Shown: piece by piece, positions 5,957-33,811 of the stretch
Layout of the letters: every line of letters starts with the position of its first letter
How positions within the stretch are numbered: position 1 is the stretch's first letter
From: Nitrosopumilaceae archaeon
GTDB lineage: Archaea > Thermoproteota > Nitrososphaeria > Nitrososphaerales > Nitrosopumilaceae
Direction: 5' to 3'
Assembly (NCBI GenBank): GCA_965200155.1
Contig: CBDATR010000034.1
Location: 160,001-224,000, forward strand
Length of the DNA stretch: 64,000 nt
The notes under the pieces: model-generated
What the model saw: only the letters and a program-made list of their open reading frames with translations
What the model was told of the DNA's origin: nothing
Database searches by the model: none
Program-made: the position numbers and the translations under genes

Positions 5957-6063
5957 GTAGCCGTATCTGTAATGTGTTGTAAAAACCCTTGTTCATGTAC
6001 TCATAGGGCAGAATCGAAGATTGGAAACCCGGTCATATATCATGTATTGATATAACAGCTATG

Positions 6064-7024
6064 TCAATAGTACGAAAAGTAAGTCCGCTTAGGATCCGGC
6101 GTACAGTAGCTCAGATTGCACAAGCCAGATGGTAAAGAGAACAACAGAGGAATCAAGACAAAAGAGGCGTTGCCACAACCAAAATAGCTCAAGACCCGAA
6201 ACAAGACACGTACGAAGATTGTGAACCAGAGAACGGGAACGACTCGAGTAAAGATGGGCAGGCCTATGATACCAATCACCGCTACCCAGATACGAATGGT
6301 AACTGAAGCATATCACAAGGATCCCGCCGGAGTAGTACGTATTGCAAAGAGGCTTAGACAGAATTACAATATATCGCGTAGTATATCGCATAATGAAAAA
6401 GAACGGCACGACAGTCTCATCACCTGCAAAGTCAGAGTGGGTACGCTATGAGCGTAAATATTCCAATGCAATGTGGCACTGGCATGTCATGAAAAGATGA
6501 GCGCTTCAGGGGACTGAATCTCATAGATGATGCATCCAGGTGTATAGTCGGAGCGGCACTATTCTAGCATGCAACCTGAGAACGCCGCTCTATTACTGAG
6601 ATTGGCGATAGAACGATTCGGCGCCCCTGCATCTCGGATAACGGCGCGTGTTTCGTAGGACAATAAAAGGGCAAAAAGAACTGGAAACCCACACTATTCT
6701 AGGAAGAACTGCTGGATCAAGACATCATACTAATCAATTCCAGACCATACCACCCGCAGACAAATGGCAAACTGGAGCGCTTCCATGGAATGATTGAGGA
6801 CGAGGGGACTCTTATTTAAGAGTCCAACGAGATATGGCATTATGACAGTCTCCGGGATTATATAGACTACTATAATGAGAGAAGATTGCACTTCTCACTG
6901 GATATAGATAACGGCGAGACACCACTCCAGGAATAAAAAGGCGACCCAGACAATTAGGGCAAATGATGCAAAATGGATGGAGCGAGATACCAATGACTAG
7001 CGGACCGACTTTTCGTACATTACA
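6064..7024 (+). mobile_element. IS481-like non-autonomous copy B
   Basis: Ends TCAATAGTACGAAAAGT...ACTTTTCGTACATTACA; frameshifted integrase-core transposase. Confidence 0.9.
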
Positions 7025-7249
7025 GTCGAGTAAAAATCAGACATCTAGACGGTAAATTCATGGGTATATGTGAGGCATCATGATAGAAAAAGCAAGGTGT
7101 GGGTTCATCTATGTCTAAATTTACGCATGACTTATCGTGACAGCAAGTGTGATTTGTACACGAGATTCCGGAAGACGTGAACTCATACAAAGAATGGATA
7201 TGTCCGCGGTGTGTTTTGAGCGATTGTCTAGGGTGACCTAAATGGTTAC
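7025..7249. mobile_element. Truncated MITE-B (IS66 family B ends) containing a degenerate MITE-A (7097-7188)
   Basis: Homologous to 51198-51319; right end GACCTAAATGGTTAC. Confidence 0.7.
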
Positions 7250-7407
7250 TAACAGGTTTCCCTGCACCAAGCTGGTCGTCTAGAGGGCGTCAGAGTCGCC
7301 CAGCTAGAGATGTCAGGACGGAGCGCATAGTGACAAGCCAAAACCATGTACTGACCAATCGCAAGGCGCCGTTAAGATCATAGTCAAAGACTTATGATTG
7401 TCGCCAT
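7250..7407 (+). mobile_element. 3' end remnant of the tnpB TIR element
   Basis: Similar to 15712-15840 (reverse complement); ends CAAAGACTTATGATTGTCGCCA followed by TA. Confidence 0.6.
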
Positions 7408-7532
7408 AAAACGTCTCAATCCACAAGGAATTCTACGGTATGAGAATTCAAAATAGTCAAACTGCAACAAAGAGCAGGCATCATTTGTCGAATCATACAA
7501 GAATGCAATAAATACAAGTCAATTATTAGTTG

Positions 7533-8777
7533 ATGATAGACTTGAGATTCGCACACTTTGCCGATACGCATCTGGGATTCCAAAAGCAGGAGCCATTACA
7601 AAAGATAGAGCAGCAGGTCTTTGAGGAGGCCATGGACAGGTGCATGGAGAAAAATGTCGATTTCATACTAATGTGTGGTGATTTATTCCACACAAATATC
7701 CCCGACATGCGCGTACAAAAGATTGCCATGAAAAAGTTTTCCGAGATACACAAGGCCAAGATCCCCGTATACGCCGTATATGGGAGCCACGACTTTTCGC
7801 CCACATCCAGCTCCACCATTGATTTGCTAGAGTCCGCAGGCTTTCTGACCAAGGTGACTGTACAATTACCCCACGAGGAACTCATTCGCCTGGATTTTCT
7901 TGAGGACAAGAATACAGGCGCCCGTCTTGCAGGCTTGTCCGGTCTCAAGGCAGGCAGGGACATAGAATATCATGAAAGACTGGACCGGGAATATTTGGAA
8001 TCGCAGGACGGCTTCAAGATATTCATGTTTCATGGTGCCATTACAGAAATGTTGCACGAGGAGAGCGGCGATAGCATGGCAATATCAAATATGCCAAGGG
8101 GAATGGACTACTATGCTGGTGGGCACATGCACACATATCAGCACCACAGTTTTCCCGGATACGACAATGTAGTGTATCCAGGAACGATGTTTGCAGGCTA
8201 CCACTCCGATATTGAGAATAGTGCCAAGGGGGTAATGCGCGGCTTTGCCATGGTGGACTTTGAGGACAAGGTAAAAGATGTACGGCACGAGGTGATAACC
8301 GGTTGCCAGTACAAGATGCTAGAGATAAACGGCGAGAACAAATCCTCCGCGTCAGTAAGTGCGGAAATTCACGACCGCATGAGCGGTATGGACGTGAGAG
8401 AAAAGGTGGTCATACTAAAGGCATGGGGCGAGATGGGAGAGGGACGCACATCCGATATAGATTTTCAGGGTATTTACAGGCAGTTATTGCAGAATGGCGC
8501 CTATGATGTACTGATAAATCGTAGCGGCCTCTCTTCGCGCGAATACAAGATAGAAGGTCAGTCTGCCGGAAGCAGCGAGCAGATTGAGCATAGTACATTC
8601 CAGGAGAACATAGGACAGGTCCGCATGAAGCGGACAAATTTAATAGATTCCAGTGGCGTCCAGCTCTCCAAGGATCTGCTTGGTACCCTCAGGCAATTAC
8701 GTCCAGACAACGAGACAAAGTCAGATTACGATACACGTATGACAAGGGACGGGGCAGCCAGAATGGAGGGACAGTAA
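7533..8777 (+). CDS. mre11: DNA double-strand break repair nuclease Mre11
   Basis: Metallophosphoesterase motifs DTHLG, GDLFH, GSHD, FHG, GHMH; adjacent to rad50. Confidence 0.93.
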   Translation: MIDLRFAHFADTHLGFQKQEPLQKIEQQVFEEAMDRCMEKNVDFILMCGDLFHTNIPDMRVQKIAMKKFSEIHKAKIPVYAVYGSHDFSPTSSSTIDLLESAGFLTKVTVQLPHEELIRLDFLEDKNTGARLAGLSGLKAGRDIEYHERLDREYLESQDGFKIFMFHGAITEMLHEESGDSMAISNMPRGMDYYAGGHMHTYQHHSFPGYDNVVYPGTMFAGYHSDIENSAKGVMRGFAMVDFEDKVKDVRHEVITGCQYKMLEINGENKSSASVSAEIHDRMSGMDVREKVVILKAWGEMGEGRTSDIDFQGIYRQLLQNGAYDVLINRSGLSSREYKIEGQSAGSSEQIEHSTFQENIGQVRMKRTNLIDSSGVQLSKDLLGTLRQLRPDNETKSDYDTRMTRDGAARMEGQ

Positions 8778-11700
8778 ATGCTGATAAAAAAGATAGCGCT
8801 TGAGAATATACGCAGTTACCCCAAACTTCACCTGGATATGCCCACAGGATACGTTCTTTTGGAAGGGGATGTCGGGGCGGGCAAGTCTACCATTCTGATG
8901 GCCATAGAGTTTGCCCTGTTCGGGTTGGGCGAGATGAAGCCGGACAGTCTGATATCCAAGGGAAAGAGTCGCGGCGAGGTGGCACTTACCTTCGAGGTAG
9001 ACGGAATCCAGTACGAAGTGGGCAGAACACTGCTCAGCAAGAATGGCAAGATAAACCAGGATCCCAAAGGCGCATACCTGTCAGTGGATGGGCAGCGGGA
9101 GCCGCTCACTGCCTCTGATCTAAAGAGTCGTATCCTACAGGTACTAAACTTCCGTGAACCGTCGGGCCCGCGCTCCCACAGCAGGGTATACAGGTACGCC
9201 GTATACACACCACAAGAAGAGATAAAGGCAATCCTAGGCAATGATGCCAGCCGGGAAGAAGCCATTCGGCGTGCCTTTGGTATAGAGGATTATGAAACAG
9301 TAGTGAATAACGCAAAGACACTGCGGCAAAAATTCTCAACTGACAGGGCTGAACTCTCAGGCAGGTTCGCCAAGCTGGAAGAGTATTGTGGCGAGCAGGA
9401 ATCGCAAAAAACGGCACTGGTGGAGATGGAGGATAGCCTTGAGGAAATATTCAAGAACAAGAACATCTATGCCGCCCAGATTGCCCAGGCAAAGGCACGA
9501 CAATCCATTCTTTCCCAACAGATGGATGACATGACACGCATAGACGCAGAAAGGAATCACACCAAAAGAGAGATTGGGCGCTACAATGGCATGATAGATG
9601 ACTGCAAGGACAGGCTGGAAAAAGACAGGGCGGATTTGGTCCATGTGAACCAGGAGCTTGATCAGCGGGGCAGTCCACAGTGCCCTACCAGTGTGAGCGC
9701 CGGTGAGCTTCAGGAGAGCCTGGAGAAGATAGAGAGTGAGGAGAAGAGTATACTCAGTAAGGAGGCTGATGACAAGAATTGCAGGAGCAGGATATCGGAC
9801 ATTGAGGAGGAGCTGGGCGAAATTGGTATCTTGGAGTGTCCCACCAGTGTGAGCGCCGGTGAGCTTCAGGAGAGCCTGGAGAAGATAGAGAGTGAGGAGA
9901 AGAGTATACTCAGTAAGGAGGCTGATGACAAGAATTGCAGGAGCAGGATATCGGACATTGAGGAGGAGCTGGGCGAAATTGGTATCTTGGAGTGTCCCAC
10001 CAGTGTGAGCGCCGGTGAGCTTCAGGAGAGCCTGGAGAAGATAGAGAGTGAGGAGAAGAGTATACTCAGTAAGGAGGCTGATGACAAGAATTGCAGGAGC
10101 AGGATATCGGACATTGAGGAGGAGCTGGGCGAAATTGGTATCTTGGAGTGTCCCACCAGTGTGAGCGCCGGTGAGCTTCAGGAGAGCCTGGAGAAGATAG
10201 AGAGTGAGGAGAAGAGTATACTCAGTAAGGAGGCTGATGACAAGAATTGCAGGAGCAGGATATCGGACATTGAGGAGGAGCTGGGCGAAATTGGTATCTT
10301 GGAGTGTCCCACCAGTGTGAGCGCCGGTGAGCTTCAGGAGAGCCTGGAGAAGATAGAGAGTGAGGAGAAGAGTATACTCAGTAAGGAGGCTGATGACAAG
10401 AATTGCAGGAGCAGGATATCGGACATTGAGGAGGAGCTGGGCGAAATTGGTATCTTGGAGTGTCCCACCAGTGTGAGCGCCGGTGAGCTTCAGGAGAGCC
10501 TGGAGAAGATAGAGAGTGAGGAGAAGAGTATACTCAGTAAGGAGGCTGATGACAAGAATTGCAGGAGCAGGATATCGGACATTGAGGAGGAGCTGGGCGA
10601 AATTGGTATCTTGGAGTGTCCCACCAGTGTGAGCGCCGGTGAGCTTCAGGAGAGCCTGGAGAAGATAGAGAGTGAGGAGAAGAGTATACTCAGTAAGGAG
10701 GCTGATGACAAGAATTGCAGGAGCAGGATATCGGACATTGAGGAGGAGCTGGGCGAAATTGGTATCTTGGAGTGTCCCACCAGTGTGAGCGCCGGTGAGC
10801 TTCAGGCAAGATTGGAGGATATAGAGAGAGTTGAGAGGAACATACTGAGCAAGGAGTCTGAGGCAAGAGCATGTGTAGTAAAGATAAAGCAGCTATCCGG
10901 CAAGATTGGAGAAAGAACACTTGAATCAATACTTAATGAAATATCATCTTTGGAGAAGGGCATAGAGAATCATGAACGAAATATGTCCATGTATGAGGGG
11001 AATCTCAGAAACCACAGTGTTCTAATGGGATCAATCAGTAATACGATACATACACTCGAAGACATTCTGGACAAGACCAAGGACCTTGGGGGGCGCTGTG
11101 ATTATTGTGACAGTACACTTGATGAAAAATATGTAGCAGAGCTGCAAAGTAAACGCAGGGATAAACTAAACGAGGCCAGGCAAGAAAAAGAGAGCATTGC
11201 TCGCAAGATATCCCAAAATACAAAGAGTCGCGAGGATGCCATGCTACAGCTGAACCGCCATCGTATCACGCTAAAAGAGTGCCAGGAAGCCCAAGTACAC
11301 GCCATGCAAAAGAGGGATCAGGGATGGATGCTGGAGGGAATCACCAAAGAGCTGGAGCAGCTGGACGCGGAAAAGTACGTACCCCAGGAGCAGCCTATAG
11401 CGAGGGAGGAGAACGAGAGTAGTACGGCGTATGTACGCAGACTGCAGAGCCTGCTACAGAGTTATGAAACCAAGTCAGAGAAGAAGAACAGTCTATTGCA
11501 GCAAAAGGACGAACAGGAAAAGATGCTGGAGGGAATCACCAAAGAGCTGGAGCAGCTGGACGCGGAAAAGTACGTACCCCAGGAGCAGCCTATAGCGAGG
11601 GAGGAGAACGAGAGTAGTACGGCGTATGTACGCAGACTGCAGAGCCTGCTACAGAGTTATGAAACCAAGTCAGAGAAGAAGAACAGTCTATTGCAGCAAA

Positions 11701-13667
11701 AGGACGAACAGGAAAAGATGCTGGAGGGAATCACCAAAGAGCTGGAGCAGCTGGACGCGGAAAAGTACGTACCCCAGGAGCAGCCTATAGCGAGGGAGGA
11801 GAACGAGAGTAGTACGGCGTATGTACGCAGACTGCAGAGCCTGCTACAGAGTTATGAAACCAAGTCAGAGAAGAAGAACAGTCTATTGCAGCAAAAGGAC
11901 GAACAGGAAAAGATGCTGGAGGGAATCACCAAAGAGCTGGAGCAGCTGGACGCGGAAAAGTACGTACCCCAGGAGCAGCCTATAGCGAGGGAGGAGAACG
12001 AGAGTAGTACGGCGTATGTACGCAGACTGCAGAGCCTGCTACAGAGTTATGAAACCAAGTCAGAGAAGAAGAACAGTCTATTGCAGCAAAAGGACGAACA
12101 GGAAAAGATGCTGGAGGGAATCACCAAAGAGCTGGAGCAGCTGGACGCGGAAAAGTACGTACCCCAGGAGCAGCCTATAGCGAGGGAGGAGAACGAGAGT
12201 AGTACGGCGTATGTACGCAGACTGCAGAGCCTGCTACAGAGTTATGAAACCAAGTCAGAGAAGAAGAACAGTCTATTGCAGCAAAAGGACGAACAGGAAA
12301 AGATGCTGGAGGGAATCACCAAAGAGCTGGAGCAGCTGGACGCGGAAAAGTACGTACCCCAGGAGCAGCCTATAGCGAGGGAGGAGAACGAGAGTAGTAC
12401 GGCGTATGTACGCAGACTGCAGAGCCTGCTACAGAGTTATGAAACCAAGTCAGAGAAGAAGAACAGTCTATTGCAGCAAAAGGACGAACAGGAAAAGATG
12501 CTGGAGGGAATCACCAAAGAGCTGGAGCAGCTGGACGCGGAAAAGTACGTACCCCAGGAGCAGCCTATAGCGAGGGAGGAGAACGAGAGTAGTACGGCGT
12601 ATGTACGCAGACTGCAGAGCCTGCTACAGAGTTATGAAACCAAGTCAGAGAAGAAGAACAGTCTATTGCAGCAAAAGGACGAACAGGAAAAGATGCTGGA
12701 GGGAATCACCAAAGAGCTGGAGCAGCTGGACGCGGAAAAGTACGTACCCCAGGAGCAGCCTATAGCGAGGGAGGAGAACGAGAGTAGTACGGCGTATGTA
12801 CGCAGACTGCAGAGCCTGCTACAGAGTTATGAAACAGACATTAGATACGTAAAAGAGCAGGAAGAGAGAAAAGAGAGCCTGGAATCGGACATTGACAAGG
12901 AGGAGACAAATCTGGTACAGTACAGGCAAGAGGATGAAAAACTGCAGGGTTCCCTGATAGAGGCAGAACGCCAACTGCAGGGACGCGATACACTGCAGAA
13001 GGATATTGATGAAAACGAAAAAGAGATGGATGAGGTCATGACCAGCCTGGAAAAAGAGAGGGACGAGGAATCCCGCATCAATGAGCGAATCAGTAATACA
13101 AAGTCAGTACTGGACAAGCTGGACACAGACATACAGGAGGCCAGAGTGTACAAGGCAGAGCACGACAAGTGCCAGGATTATGTGGAATGGCTGAACATGT
13201 ACTTTGTTCCCACGGTGGCGGCAATAGAGAGCAGGGTAATGGAGTCATTACGCTATGACTTTAACGACTCATATAGCGAATGGTACGCCACACTGGTGGA
13301 TGATCCCACCAAGAACTCGTACATAAACGAAAAGTTTGCGCCGGTACTGGAGCAGGACGGGTATCAACAGAATGTGGATTATCTGAGTGGTGGCGAGAAG
13401 ACAAGCGTGGCGCTGGCATACAGGCTGGCCATAAACAGTACAATGAGACGGCAGACCCAAGCCCTGAAATCCAATCTAATCATACTGGACGAGCCCACCG
13501 ACGGCTTTTCCCGGGAACAAATGAACAAGGTCCGGGTAATACTGGAGTCCCTAAAGTCACAGCAGGTAATCATGGTATCCCACGAAAAGGAACTGGAAGG
13601 GTATGTAGATCACGTGTTCCAGATCACCAAGAATGAGGGTGTATCATCCGTGCAAAGAATACGCTAG
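8778..13667 (+). CDS. rad50: Rad50 ATPase with tandem-repeat-expanded coiled coils (1629 aa)
   Basis: Walker A GDVGAGKS, Q-loop TPQEE, zinc hook CDYC (11097-11108), signature LSGGE, Walker B ILDEPT, H-loop VSH. Confidence 0.95.
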   Translation: MLIKKIALENIRSYPKLHLDMPTGYVLLEGDVGAGKSTILMAIEFALFGLGEMKPDSLISKGKSRGEVALTFEVDGIQYEVGRTLLSKNGKINQDPKGAYLSVDGQREPLTASDLKSRILQVLNFREPSGPRSHSRVYRYAVYTPQEEIKAILGNDASREEAIRRAFGIEDYETVVNNAKTLRQKFSTDRAELSGRFAKLEEYCGEQESQKTALVEMEDSLEEIFKNKNIYAAQIAQAKARQSILSQQMDDMTRIDAERNHTKREIGRYNGMIDDCKDRLEKDRADLVHVNQELDQRGSPQCPTSVSAGELQESLEKIESEEKSILSKEADDKNCRSRISDIEEELGEIGILECPTSVSAGELQESLEKIESEEKSILSKEADDKNCRSRISDIEEELGEIGILECPTSVSAGELQESLEKIESEEKSILSKEADDKNCRSRISDIEEELGEIGILECPTSVSAGELQESLEKIESEEKSILSKEADDKNCRSRISDIEEELGEIGILECPTSVSAGELQESLEKIESEEKSILSKEADDKNCRSRISDIEEELGEIGILECPTSVSAGELQESLEKIESEEKSILSKEADDKNCRSRISDIEEELGEIGILECPTSVSAGELQESLEKIESEEKSILSKEADDKNCRSRISDIEEELGEIGILECPTSVSAGELQARLEDIERVERNILSKESEARACVVKIKQLSGKIGERTLESILNEISSLEKGIENHERNMSMYEGNLRNHSVLMGSISNTIHTLEDILDKTKDLGGRCDYCDSTLDEKYVAELQSKRRDKLNEARQEKESIARKISQNTKSREDAMLQLNRHRITLKECQEAQVHAMQKRDQGWMLEGITKELEQLDAEKYVPQEQPIAREENESSTAYVRRLQSLLQSYETKSEKKNSLLQQKDEQEKMLEGITKELEQLDAEKYVPQEQPIAREENESSTAYVRRLQSLLQSYETKSEKKNSLLQQKDEQEKMLEGITKELEQLDAEKYVPQEQPIAREENESSTAYVRRLQSLLQSYETKSEKKNSLLQQKDEQEKMLEGITKELEQLDAEKYVPQEQPIAREENESSTAYVRRLQSLLQSYETKSEKKNSLLQQKDEQEKMLEGITKELEQLDAEKYVPQEQPIAREENESSTAYVRRLQSLLQSYETKSEKKNSLLQQKDEQEKMLEGITKELEQLDAEKYVPQEQPIAREENESSTAYVRRLQSLLQSYETKSEKKNSLLQQKDEQEKMLEGITKELEQLDAEKYVPQEQPIAREENESSTAYVRRLQSLLQSYETKSEKKNSLLQQKDEQEKMLEGITKELEQLDAEKYVPQEQPIAREENESSTAYVRRLQSLLQSYETDIRYVKEQEERKESLESDIDKEETNLVQYRQEDEKLQGSLIEAERQLQGRDTLQKDIDENEKEMDEVMTSLEKERDEESRINERISNTKSVLDKLDTDIQEARVYKAEHDKCQDYVEWLNMYFVPTVAAIESRVMESLRYDFNDSYSEWYATLVDDPTKNSYINEKFAPVLEQDGYQQNVDYLSGGEKTSVALAYRLAINSTMRRQTQALKSNLIILDEPTDGFSREQMNKVRVILESLKSQQVIMVSHEKELEGYVDHVFQITKNEGVSSVQRIR
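9681..10806 (+). repeat. Coding tandem repeat, 156 nt/52 aa, 7 full copies plus partial 8th
   Basis: Unit starts at 9681, 9837, 9993, 10149, 10305, 10461, 10617, 10773; identical except two synonymous changes at the start of copy 1. Confidence 0.97.
11328..12835 (+). repeat. Coding tandem repeat, 195 nt/65 aa, 7 full copies plus partial 8th
   Basis: Unit starts at 11328, 11523, 11718, 11913, 12108, 12303, 12498, 12693; copies appear identical. Confidence 0.97.
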
Positions 13668-14274: not shown

Positions 14275-14367
14275 GTGGACTTTTCAGTTGGCATAATTGC
14301 GGCAGTAGGCGTACTTGTTGCGGCCATACTGGGGCTGATAGCCATGTCCCCGGGTGCCCTGCCATAA
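14275..14367 (+). CDS. 30-aa single-TM peptide (MDFSVGIIAAVGVLVAAILGLIAMSPGALP)
   Basis: GTG start 1 nt after the upstream stop; hydrophobic helix; too short for the ORF track. Confidence 0.45.
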   Translation: MDFSVGIIAAVGVLVAAILGLIAMSPGALP

Positions 14368-14407
14368 GTCATTAGGTATTTAGTACCTGCTGAAATAAGC
14401 ACAAGCA

Positions 14408-15067
14408 TTGTCTGCCATAATAGGCCAAAAGGCGCCAGAGATACAGGTGTCCCAATGGGTCCAGGGTATACCCACCACACTGGCGCAGGAGAAAGACAGG
14501 ATAGTGCTGATTGAGGTATTCCAGGTGAACTGTCCCGGATGCTTTTTGTACGGAATACCCGAGGCCATAAACATCTACAACCAGTACAAGGACGAGGGGA
14601 TCAGGGTGCTGGGCATAGCAACGGCATTTGAGGATTTTGACAAGAATACGCCGGAGAATCTCCGGGCCCTGGCAGAGAGCGGCAAGGTCATTGGGGAAAC
14701 CGAACGCGCCCTGCAGCAGTATGGGCAGCTGCAAAATGGCATTCTCCCATACAAGATACCATTTCCACTGGCTGCGGACAATCTCATAAAGACAGAAGGT
14801 AACATAGATGACGGCAAGGTCATATCATTCATCAAGAGTCAGCTGCCGGGATTTGACTCGGAGAGTCCGGACAGGCAGAGGCAGCTGATTCAGCGGGTTA
14901 GAAATTACATGCTCTCCAAGGAGTATTCGGCCCAGACCTTTGAGACATATGGGTTGCAGGGGACACCCTCAACTATAGTGGTGGACCGGCAGGGCATACT
15001 CAGAGATGTTACGTTCGGCCAGACCGGTAGCATAGAGTCAAAGATCAAGGTCCTCTTAAGGGACTAG
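14408..15067 (+). CDS. Thioredoxin-fold (TlpA/AhpC-TSA-like) protein
   Basis: FQVNCPGC CxxC motif; GTPSTIVVDRQG. Confidence 0.85.
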   Translation: MSAIIGQKAPEIQVSQWVQGIPTTLAQEKDRIVLIEVFQVNCPGCFLYGIPEAINIYNQYKDEGIRVLGIATAFEDFDKNTPENLRALAESGKVIGETERALQQYGQLQNGILPYKIPFPLAADNLIKTEGNIDDGKVISFIKSQLPGFDSESPDRQRQLIQRVRNYMLSKEYSAQTFETYGLQGTPSTIVVDRQGILRDVTFGQTGSIESKIKVLLRD

Positions 15068-15711: not shown

Positions 15712-17224
15712 TAGCGGTCACCATAAGTCTTTGATTTTCATGGCACCTCGTTCCTGGACAGTACCTGGCTTTGGCTTGTCACCATTATTCCCGCCCTGAC
15801 GCCTCCGGACGACACGCTCTGCCGCCCCATACAGGATGTTCCATGCCGCGTTGATATAGGCGTGAAATTCCTGGTTACATATTGAAAGTGTCCCTAGTTG
15901 ATCGTGATTTGTCGTCAACGTGTCCACACACGTGACAGGTCTGGCTTGTGTATTTCACTGGCACAGCCTCCAATTCAATCCCCAGTGCCTCGCACTTTTG
16001 TACTACTTTCCGGCGGAACTCGCCTACCCGGTTCTCGCGCATGGAACGGTTCATTGCTCTTTTCCGGTTCCCGCCATGACTGGTCATTGCTTTCGGTGAT
16101 AAATCCTCTAGTACTACCTTGTCCACACCTTTGATGATCGCGTGGACCATTCTATTCGTGGAGTCGTTCGCGATATTATTCGCTTTCTGTCTTAGTCGAG
16201 TGATTTGTTTCTCAATCTTTCGCTTCCTGCGCTTACCCTTTCGCGTTCTAATACTCTGGAATGCGCTAATCTCCCGCAATATGGAACAATGTCTCATGTT
16301 ATGAATAATCGTTATGCCATTCGTGTCAGCTGTTACAGCTAGATGTTTCCCGCCGACATCCACGCAGCAAACAACGCCGGTCGGTAGGTGGTGTCTCCCG
16401 TATATTGATGTGAATCTCGAATTAACGTTCCCTGTTCTTGTCAACTCGTTCCACTATACTGAATGGGCGCATGTTCAAGGAACGATCGATTGGTTTGGTT
16501 GTTCTCACCACACCAATACCCGGCAGGTATAGTTCGTGAGAACCGCGCCTTATCGGCGGACTTACATAAGACAGTATTACTCTATCATTGTCACGCCGGT
16601 GTGGTATGTAATTAGAATGATCCTCGTACGCCCGCCTGCACGCGACAGACGCCTGTAGTATGGCGTCCAGACCATAGTTAGAGGGTAACTCGCGCACCCA
16701 CTCCAGATCACGGCGCCAATTTGTCAATTCCAGGAACAAACCATTCTTGTTGGACGGGTAAACCGTCTCTTGATGACCGTTCTAGAACGCGGTAGCTGAT
16801 TCACGGTATGAGTTCACCTGTGTCTAAATTTACGCATAACTGATGGAACAGGTTGTTCTAGTTAATGTGATTTGTGCACAAGATTCCGGAAGACGTGAAC
16901 TCATATGATTCACGTATAATGAATCACAGACCATATGGTGACTTGGCGGACTCGTTCTTATTCTTGACCTTGGCCGGATCATGCTTCAATTCAAGAGTGG
17001 TTCCAGGTATGTAGTAACCGCCCAGCGTGATCTCGGACACCGCTCTATTATAGACATAATCGGATGTGTAACCAAACATCTTGGCGCGCCGGGAGAACTC
17101 CTTATCATTCTTCAACGGTATAATGACGGTCTGAATTATGTCATCCATCATCTGGCGATTCTACTCTAGTAGTGGTTCTATATAGTACGGTCCTATACCC
17201 GGCAAAGACTTATGGTGGGCGCTA
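15712..17224 (-). mobile_element. tnpB: TIR-bounded element carrying a frameshifted tnpB (copy 1)
   Basis: RuvC-I VDVG, RuvC-II VLEDL, CHVC zinc finger, INAAWNIL; 22-bp TIR (20/22) flanked by TA on both sides. Confidence 0.8.
16806..16906. mobile_element. MITE-A in tnpB
   Basis: TSD GATTCACG. Confidence 0.9.
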
Positions 17225-33182: not shown

Positions 33183-33424
33183 CACCAAAGGTGTAGACAA
33201 GGTAGTACTAGAGAATTTATCACCGAAAGCAATGACCAGTCATGGCGGGAACCACAAAAGAGCAATGAACCGTTCCATGCGCGAGAATCGCGTCGGCGAG
33301 TTCCGCCGGAAAGTAGTACAAAAGTGCGAGGCACTGGGGATTGAATTGGTATTTGTGCCAGCGAAATACACGAGGGGGCGGTTTACCCACCCAACGAGCA
33401 AAGCCTGTCACATGTGTGGCCATG

Positions 33425-33516
33425 GTATGAGTTCACCTGTGTCTAAATTTACGCACAACTGATCGCGACAGTTAATGTGATTTGTGCACAAGATTCCGGA
33501 AGACGTGAACTCATAC
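33425..33516. mobile_element. MITE-A
   Basis: TSD TGGCCATG. Confidence 0.9.
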
Positions 33517-33811
33517 TGGCCATGTAGACAGGGAATCACGATCAACTAGGGGCAGAGGAACAGGCTTACCCGTACCCGATGTAACCAGGAGTTTCATGCC
33601 GATATCAACGCGGTATTTAGTAACCGGTTCCCCTGCACAGGGCGGCTGAGTGTGTCCATTCACAGACAATACCAAATACGTTCGGCAGATAACATTACAC
33701 AGTAGAATAGTGACACCCGAAAACTAAACCGTCCCGAGAAAGATTGCCGTATACTGACATGAAATACAACTAAATAACATGTGTTGGCAACGATGATTAT
33801 TCCTATACAAC

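Follow-up and report, generated by a model that had tools for sequence, protein, structure and literature searches.

Why should a Rad50 protein carry two tandem arrays, one in each strand of its arm, with the same number of copies in both? The question is raised by a single gene in a 64,000-nucleotide stretch of DNA from a Nitrosopumilaceae archaeon (the window, by which we mean that whole stretch), which encodes a Rad50 with eight repeated units on either side of its zinc hook. We consider it likely that this is a working Rad50 whose arms have grown by entire modules, through unequal recombination or slippage, under selection that keeps the two arms matched. The parts of the gene on which this reading turns are:

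8778..13667, + strand: rad50, a single open reading frame (ORF) of 1629 codons and 1629 amino acids (aa), from the ORF list
9679..10868, + strand: N-arm array of 156-nt (52-aa) units, seven near-identical and an eighth that is diverged and runs to about 10926
11097..11108, + strand: zinc hook CDYC, residues 774-777, the apex between the arrays (motif scan; both Cys invariant)
11327..12835, + strand: C-arm array of 195-nt (65-aa) units, 7.7 copies with eight loop motifs and a degenerate start at 11306

Tandem Repeats Finder places the N array at 9679-10868 (period 156, 7.6 copies, 98% matches) and the C array at 11327-12835 (period 195, 7.7 copies, 100% matches), and both periods are multiples of 3. 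Compared copy by copy, N copies 2-7 are identical in DNA, copy 1 differs at 2 nt, and copy 8 is identical over its first 36 nt and then diverges, so that 59 of its 156 nt differ. C copies 2-7 are likewise identical, copy 1 has 7 differing nt that all lie within its first 21 nt, and copy 8 matches up to 12835, where unique sequence begins. In the protein, the motif CPTSVSAG occurs eight times in 52-residue steps from residue 302 (302+52k) and YVPQEQPIAREENESS eight times in 65-residue steps from residue 867 (867+65k), hidden Markov models (HMMs) of the units count eight N and eight C units, and the only CxxC among the 1629 residues is the CDYC hook between the arrays. The N and C unit proteins are unrelated to each other (local score 32 vs a shuffle mean of 30.5, z 0.3). 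Subtracting 7x117 residues, that is 7x(52+65), leaves 810 aa, and single-module relatives have 805-815 aa. An earlier note on this DNA had described the unit sizes, the copies and their position either side of CDYC, the near-identity within each array together with the lack of kinship between the two, and the ordinary 810-aa remainder, and it was correct in every one of these particulars. The two arrays are among the three top-scoring long-period (>=60 nt) arrays of the 2.38-Mb assembly, the third being on another contig, and are therefore not a product of chance.

Matched copy numbers among relatives

Do the N and C arrays vary together in related proteins? The unit HMMs were built from six species and the counts were made on complete proteins, with the following N/C results in the lineage of the window protein:

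8/8: the window protein, 1629 aa
7/7: P0002, 1513 aa
6/6: P0004, 1398 aa, on a 2.07-Mb contig
4/4: the protein of G003, 1160 aa
3/3: P0003 and P0005, 1043 aa
2/2: P0006, P0007 and P0008, 926 aa, P0008 being the protein of the one-contig genome G009
1/1: P0019

Protein lengths in this lineage differ in 117-aa steps, and the units are constantly 52 and 65 aa long, with under 50% identity between those of the window and those of the others. The DNA of two relatives confirms the protein counts: G003 (4/4) has arrays of 156 nt x3.7 and 195 nt x3.7 at homologous places, and G009 (2/2) has arrays of 156 nt x1.8 and 195 nt x2.0. N equals C in nine of the 12 complete multi-copy proteins of the lineage. 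Two N-terminally cut proteins, P0020 and P0129, have four C units each, their N arrays being cut off by the contig end. The co-variation of N and C copy numbers that the earlier note had proposed to look for in relatives is thus borne out at 1/1, 2/2, 3/3, 4/4, 6/6, 7/7 and 8/8.

A tree from the head-plus-tail sequence (32 rows, with G003a left out) gives the expanded clade a support of 100/99. The 3/3 form stands in two places on it, 7/7 is sister to 6/6 and 3/3 to 2/2, with branches near 0.01-0.02; the counts have therefore changed many times, with both arrays in step.

Matched duplications of other sizes occur outside this lineage. In a second lineage (genus g2), G110, a 2-contig genome, and the proteins P0009 and P0155 are matched 2/2 with units of about 150 aa in the N arm and 162 aa in the C arm, the C duplication of G110 being 486 nt x1.9 at 99% identity. 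P0011 and P0238 (about 1175 aa) form a third lineage, in which each arm has an ancient and by now divergent duplication, about 155 aa long in the N arm and about 156-166 aa long in the C arm. Half-arm local alignments with shuffles detect these duplications at z 8-14 vs at most 2.8 in single-module controls; here, too, a matched arm duplication is fixed, and was fixed long ago. Counted over the window and second lineages, 12 of the 17 complete multi-copy proteins are matched, as are all five chromosome-scale or 239-kb assemblies (G009, G003, G110, the P0004 contig, and the window).

These relatives come from a wider background of single-module genes. At E<=1e-40, 63 of the 301 family genomes contain a match, nearly all with spans of about 2406-2445 nt (805-815 aa), and a scan of metagenomes returned three distant single-module genes and nothing more. 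The window genome measures 2.38 Mb in 51 contigs, and the genus set comprised 10 species genomes. The named homologues belong to Nitrosopumilaceae and other Nitrososphaerota and the sequencing runs that contain the gene carry the label sponge metagenome; the host is a sponge-associated archaeon of ammonia-oxidising type, Nitrosopumilaceae-like by the names of its relatives.

The matches listed from a scan of genome contigs were mainly to distant Rad50 genes. One long match among them, on a Nitrosopumilus sp. chromosome (L053, 6028-9539), was set aside as an interrupted rad50 and not an expansion. Its rad50 is split into frames 6028..7602 and 8676..9539, and a 346-aa opposite-strand ORF (7652..8692) lies between them, which looks like an insertion into rad50. 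Second copies were seen in two genomes: a genus member has a rad50-like copy with an in-frame TAA (G005:C1:1601194-1603410), and G003 has an intact single-module rad50 paralogue (L032, 890-aa frame).

The module and its place in the arm

What is it that has been multiplied? Measured over 61 single-module relatives, the invariant Pro of the N arm is found at a median of 303 residues from the N terminus and 108 residues before the hook (range 105-112). The Leu that is conserved behind the C loop comes a median of 112 residues past the hook (range 104-116) and 285 residues short of the C terminus. Both breaks therefore stand equally far from the hook, and equally far from the head, in the middle of the arm, and would face each other in an arm that folds back. 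The Pro of the N-arm break shows no variation across 64 family members, and the Thr that follows it almost none.

AlphaFold2 gives the same division of the units in two models. The window fragment 562-1037, predicted from the single sequence (predicted local distance difference test, pLDDT, 66.7; predicted template modelling score, pTM, 0.22), has N units of 41 helical and 11 coil residues and C units of 50-54 helical and 12-14 coil residues, and the 2/2 relative P0008, predicted with an alignment, has 41+11 in the N unit and 51+14 in the C unit. In both models pLDDT drops at each break. In four species, both units show hydrophobic residues at 3-4 spacing along stretches of about 40-43 residues from one break to the next. 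The unit of a helix plus a break that the earlier note had drawn holds, at about 41 helical residues per N unit and about 51 per C unit. An antiparallel fold-back is consistent with arms that are predicted helical and with the equal distances from the hook, at the fragment's low pTM. Each module thus amounts to some six heptads of coiled coil with an 11-residue Pro-Thr linker on the N strand, which would face a 13-14-residue loop on the C strand, and the repeated unit is, as judged from sequence conservation, a mid-arm joint conserved across this Rad50 family. The C loop would bulge out without adding rise, which fits the 52 aa of the N unit being the C unit minus its loop (65-13) and, in the second lineage, an excess of 10-14 aa of the C unit over the N unit. 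A complex prediction of three N against three C window units scored 0.00 (mark 0.34) with the fold of the partner uncertain, and is evidence neither way.

The module may have been multiplied for the function of its joint, as a hinge or as a partner- or DNA-binding site, giving a flexible, foldable or multivalent arm instead of reach. The invariant Pro and nearly invariant Thr point in this direction, as do the pLDDT dips at every break and the mid-arm position, which is like that of the non-helical elbows described for the arms of SMC proteins in passages of PMC7752040. However, no loop partner or fold was identified, and about 40 of the 52 and of the 65 residues are ordinary heptad helix that adds length regardless. 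A joint function would still require parity, and so refines the growth of matched arms without replacing it; we hold it as a tentative but serious possibility.

Assembly, decay and descent as alternatives

Might the count of eight in both arms be an artefact of assembly, the arrays being real but their true lengths different and perhaps unequal? Perfect repeats of 1.1 and 1.4 kb are uncountable by short reads, the evidence from reads consists of Logan k-mer contigs, and the short-read genus genomes G002 and G007 respectively break and carry runs of N exactly at the arrays. The k-mer contigs come from 8 runs of two studies, of which X1 and X3 are possibly the source of the assembly; four runs were compared with window positions 10700-11560 and show zero differing letters. 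Word depth in such contigs is not copy number and was used solely to exclude one or two copies. In three of the runs, from two studies (X1, X3 and X5), word depth at the unique hook contig is 59.6, 43.7 and 66.4. The first C-unit contig has 386.8, 347 and 464.5, or 6.5-7.9x the hook where the assembly predicts 8, and the second has 303.6, 288.3 and 437.7 (5.1-6.6x, prediction 7). A 32-nt N-junction contig, at 250, 227.5 and 305 (4.2-5.2x), is under the assembled 6, which speaks for an artefact. In X7, one contig closes into a loop of 195 nt.

The earlier note had held that depth could expose a single copy or unequal counts; ratios of 5-8x do exclude one or two copies, whereas depth does not prove the counts equal. 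Further arguments against an artefact come from the equal counts at 2, 3, 4, 6, 7 and 8 in independent assemblies, which it would not produce, and from the assembly itself, which is gapless (N50 239 kb, no N) and resolves many other perfect arrays of 0.5-1.7 kb. We regard miscounting of this kind as unlikely.

Two further observations concern reads and gaps at these arrays. On window positions 10729-10857, X7 has short N-unit contigs with a word depth of 1400-1740 vs 16.7 in the unique region and with adaptor-like loose ends, which suggests an artefact of the library or the over-representation of one fragment. In G007:C23 (L036), 802 N stand in two runs at the expected sites of the N and C arrays, as scaffold gaps or masked stretches.

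A different question is whether the protein still works as Rad50, for which the heads, the hook and the neighbouring gene are informative:

7530..8777, + strand: Mre11-type nuclease gene, 415 aa, calcineurin-type phosphoesterase (ORF; Pfam Metallophos, E 7.9e-15)
8865..8888, + strand: Walker A GDVGAGKS, residues 30-37, in the N-terminal ATPase lobe (motif scan; G33, G35 and K36 invariant in both alignments)
13383..13586, + strand: C-lobe with LSGGE (residues 1536-1540), Walker B ILDEP (1569-1573) and H-loop SHE (1601-1603), all in invariant columns

Residues 1-219 match the solved Rad50 heads 5f3w (E 4e-20) and 3aux (E 1.4e-19), and residues 1525-1626 match the Rad50 C-lobes 3qku and 3qkt (E 6e-22). 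Walker A, the Q-loop (YTPQ, residues 143-146 by motif scan), the signature motif, Walker B and the H-loop are all present, in columns that are invariant across alignments of 12 and of 64 relatives, and both hook Cys are invariant in the same alignments; the hook CxxC sits in coil between long helices in the predicted model. The stop codon of mre11 abuts the ATG of rad50, the upstream ORF ending at 8777, one base before it, and the mre11-rad50 gene order, read here as an operon, is also present in the relative G003. The top NCBIfam matches of the 415-aa ORF are Mre11 models (Mre11_Pyroc, E 5.9e-28), all under their equivalog cut-offs. The AlphaFold2 model of P0008 (64-sequence alignment, pLDDT 82.8, pTM 0.47) has as its top PDB fold match in Foldseek the Chaetomium Rad50 7zr1, ahead of SMC proteins (E 5.6e-25, TM 0.43/0.50, 15-16% sequence identity). 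The identification as Rad50 made in the earlier note is upheld by the head-lobe matches, the motifs, the hook Cys and the adjoining Mre11 gene. Two other identities were rejected: an SMC proper of condensin type, as a Pfam scan gave no match to the SMC hinge family, the apex is a short CxxC loop and SMC_prok_B scores just 17 bits, and the archaea-specific SMC-related protein ASRP (NF045487), whose model gives 90 bits vs a cut-off of 300, a lower score than that of the Rad50 model. The window's genome has four more genes for SMC/AAA_23-type ATPases (frames of 1180, 662, 655 and 723 aa), and matches of this type lie at G000:C34:15804-16616, C48:6015-6767 and 14292-15038, and C46:7296-8213.

Could the arrays nevertheless reflect slippage that is neutral or does slight harm, in a symbiont on which selection has relaxed and whose Rad50 no longer works? 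The genome is indeed riddled with transposons, as the earlier note had it from the window (38 DDE_Tnp_1 matches and 20 to the TnpB-type zinc-ribbon model PF07282 in the whole 2.38 Mb), and its richness in transposases and in other perfect tandem arrays of coding size would suit decay, as would the long branch of the window protein and the lack of expression evidence. Against this stand an uninterrupted reading frame of 1629 codons, in which all catalytic motifs and the two hook Cys are preserved, and the fact that this is the sole Rad50 found in its genome, no second one having turned up with the window Rad50 as query in a genome that is 87.6% complete. Decay, moreover, would not hold two unrelated arrays at equal counts across species, and we consider it very unlikely. 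That the equal counts come from shared ancestry or chance instead of selection for parity is highly improbable: counts are shared among close relatives through descent, the number of proteins is small and five forms are 2/1, but seven count states in one clade all lie on the diagonal, 3/3 stands in two places of the tree, 7/7 and 6/6 are sisters, and a second lineage with other unit sizes is matched too, in a 2-contig genome.

Among the mobile elements, PF07282 (TnpB/Cas12f-type zinc ribbon) has matches in the window at 15902-16024 (- strand) and 33295-33615 (+ strand), the latter with 3 in-frame stops. Other perfect or near-perfect tandem arrays of the genome are G000 C10:347556-350093, C24:193702-194254 and 339924-340615, C5:90996-91729, C25:3665-4295, and arrays on C23 and C31. 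Their periods are mainly multiples of 3 (78, 126, 93, 174, 261, 96 and 312), which suggests in-frame repeat expansion in several other genes of this genome.

Proposed growth of the arm and known systems

How would the two strands of an arm grow to the same extent? In the reading that we favour, growth of a working Rad50 in whole modules with matched arms, both antiparallel strands would owe their added length to seven further copies of a single ancestral arm module, made up of a helix of about 41 residues and the 11-residue Pro-Thr linker on the outgoing strand and of a helix of about 51 residues and the 13-14-residue loop on the returning strand. Unequal recombination or replication slippage between copies would add units to the two separate tandem repeats and remove them, as the identity of the units suggests. 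Alleles with unequal counts would be lost and those with equal counts would persist, since unequal numbers would put arms, heads and hook out of register, and arm length would shift between species in whole modules, from 1 to 8. Coupled amplification of the two arrays, which the earlier note had considered beside selection for parity, is unsupported: the arrays are unrelated and lie about 460 nt from each other, the hook stays single throughout, and we see no single recombination event that would change both equally. Selection for parity is the better reading.

A helix rises by about 0.15 nm per residue. An archaeal arm of about 30 nm would thus gain about 43-53 nm from seven modules and would exceed the ~60 nm quoted for eukaryotes. 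The jointed arm may be either extended or folded at its eight joints. Arm length might further be a contingency trait in these sponge-associated archaea: fast-mutating arrays would generate populations with varied module numbers, including transient real 2/1 forms, selection would favour matched arms, and the preferred length would shift between hosts or with mobile elements. We consider this extension rather doubtful; if it is true, this would be a DNA-repair machine with its reach tuned in whole modules.

Several points weigh against growth with matched arms. Foremost are five homologues with two N units and one C unit, namely P0016, P0017 and P0018 (861-871 aa) of the window lineage and P0010 and P0124 of the second lineage, which carry the N duplication alone; if these forms are real, arm parity is not strict. 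The exact 8/8 rests on one assembly, with the reads in k-mer contig form, and the depth ratios, at 1-30% under the assembled counts, do not prove equality. Contact between N and C units is putative, the AlphaFold2 fragment having a pTM of 0.22, and the full-length product and activity of the window Rad50 are predicted from sequence. The window protein stands on a long branch (0.77), and the genome's completeness leaves room for a second Rad50. Finally, Pfam Rad50_zn_hook falls on residues 754-803 at E 3e-4, with 21 bits vs a cut-off of 24.3 bits, and the top NCBIfam family, Rad50 PRK03918 (E 2.7e-37), reaches 128 bits vs a cut-off of 700. The 1/1 relative P0019 is likewise under the PRK03918 cut-off (147 bits), and the NCBIfam Rad50 models are lineage-specific equivalogs, the archaeal profiles having lengths of 872-895.

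For the 2/1 forms, we think that collapsed short-read assemblies are the economical explanation, real n+1/n intermediates being the alternative. P0017 and P0016 barely differ from two 2/2 proteins, P0008 and P0006 (branches of about 0.003-0.007) and come from contigs of 13-34 kb, and four of the five 2/1 proteins come from contigs of 5-56 kb. The missing copy is in all five cases from the more homogeneous array, that of the C arm; the two C units of G009 show no difference over 187 nt, and its N units differ at a dozen sites.

The loss of unmatched arms would be consistent, by analogy, with what is described for related proteins. Passages of Burmann et al. 2017 (PMC5344682) report that SMC arms are functional solely at certain periodic lengths and that arm truncations of yeast Rad50 are defective, and PMC7788285 describes the deletion of a single residue in the coil of human RAD50 that causes disease. 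The effect of arm length and periodicity on Rad50 function is an open question; according to the same passages of Burmann et al., only a handful of Rad50 truncations had been tested, and periodic elements in Rad50 arms had gone unexamined. The present proteins form a natural series of similar Rad50s with 1, 2, 3, 4, 6, 7 and 8 modules of known size, matched on both strands, and so offer a natural test of how arm length matters for the ATPase, for DNA tethering and for control of the Mre11 nuclease. They also provide comparative evidence, from natural variation, that antiparallel coiled-coil strands are held at equal module number. A literature search over titles, the starts of abstracts and selected passages, without supplements, found no description of a tandem-repeat expansion of Rad50 arms, and none of a conserved mid-arm Rad50 joint in titles and abstract starts. 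The kind of protein is known; the natural, stepwise, strand-matched expansion of its arms and the conserved mid-arm joint appear to be new.

Set beside known archaeal Rad50s (P. furiosus 3qku/3qkt; M. jannaschii 5f3w/3aux), the window protein has the same split ABC-ATPase head, a single CxxC hook between helical arms and mre11 upstream. It differs in its length of 1629 aa (members of its own family have about 810, the NCBIfam archaeal models about 880), in that its excess consists wholly of two perfect tandem arrays, and in scoring below the equivalog cut-offs. Passages of PMC7752040 put arm length at almost 600 Å in eukaryotes vs about 300 Å in archaea. With eukaryotic Rad50 (Chaetomium thermophilum MRN, 7zr1), the best fold match of the 2/2 relative, the window protein shares long arms, whereas its own arrays are identical repeats whose number varies between related species; being built of identical repeats, they are recent. 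The two other lineages with matched duplications likewise have one in each arm at matching positions, with a C unit about 10-14 aa longer, but both have two copies only, of about 150/162 aa in G110, P0009 and P0155 and old and diverged in P0011 and P0238, and neither reaches the eight identical copies of the window. SMC arms, finally, are antiparallel coiled coils that need register, as is predicted for the arms of the window protein, with discrete length steps and a non-helical discontinuity in mid-arm. SMC proteins, however, have a hinge where the window protein has a hook, and their length series was engineered in the laboratory, whereas the series described here is a natural one.

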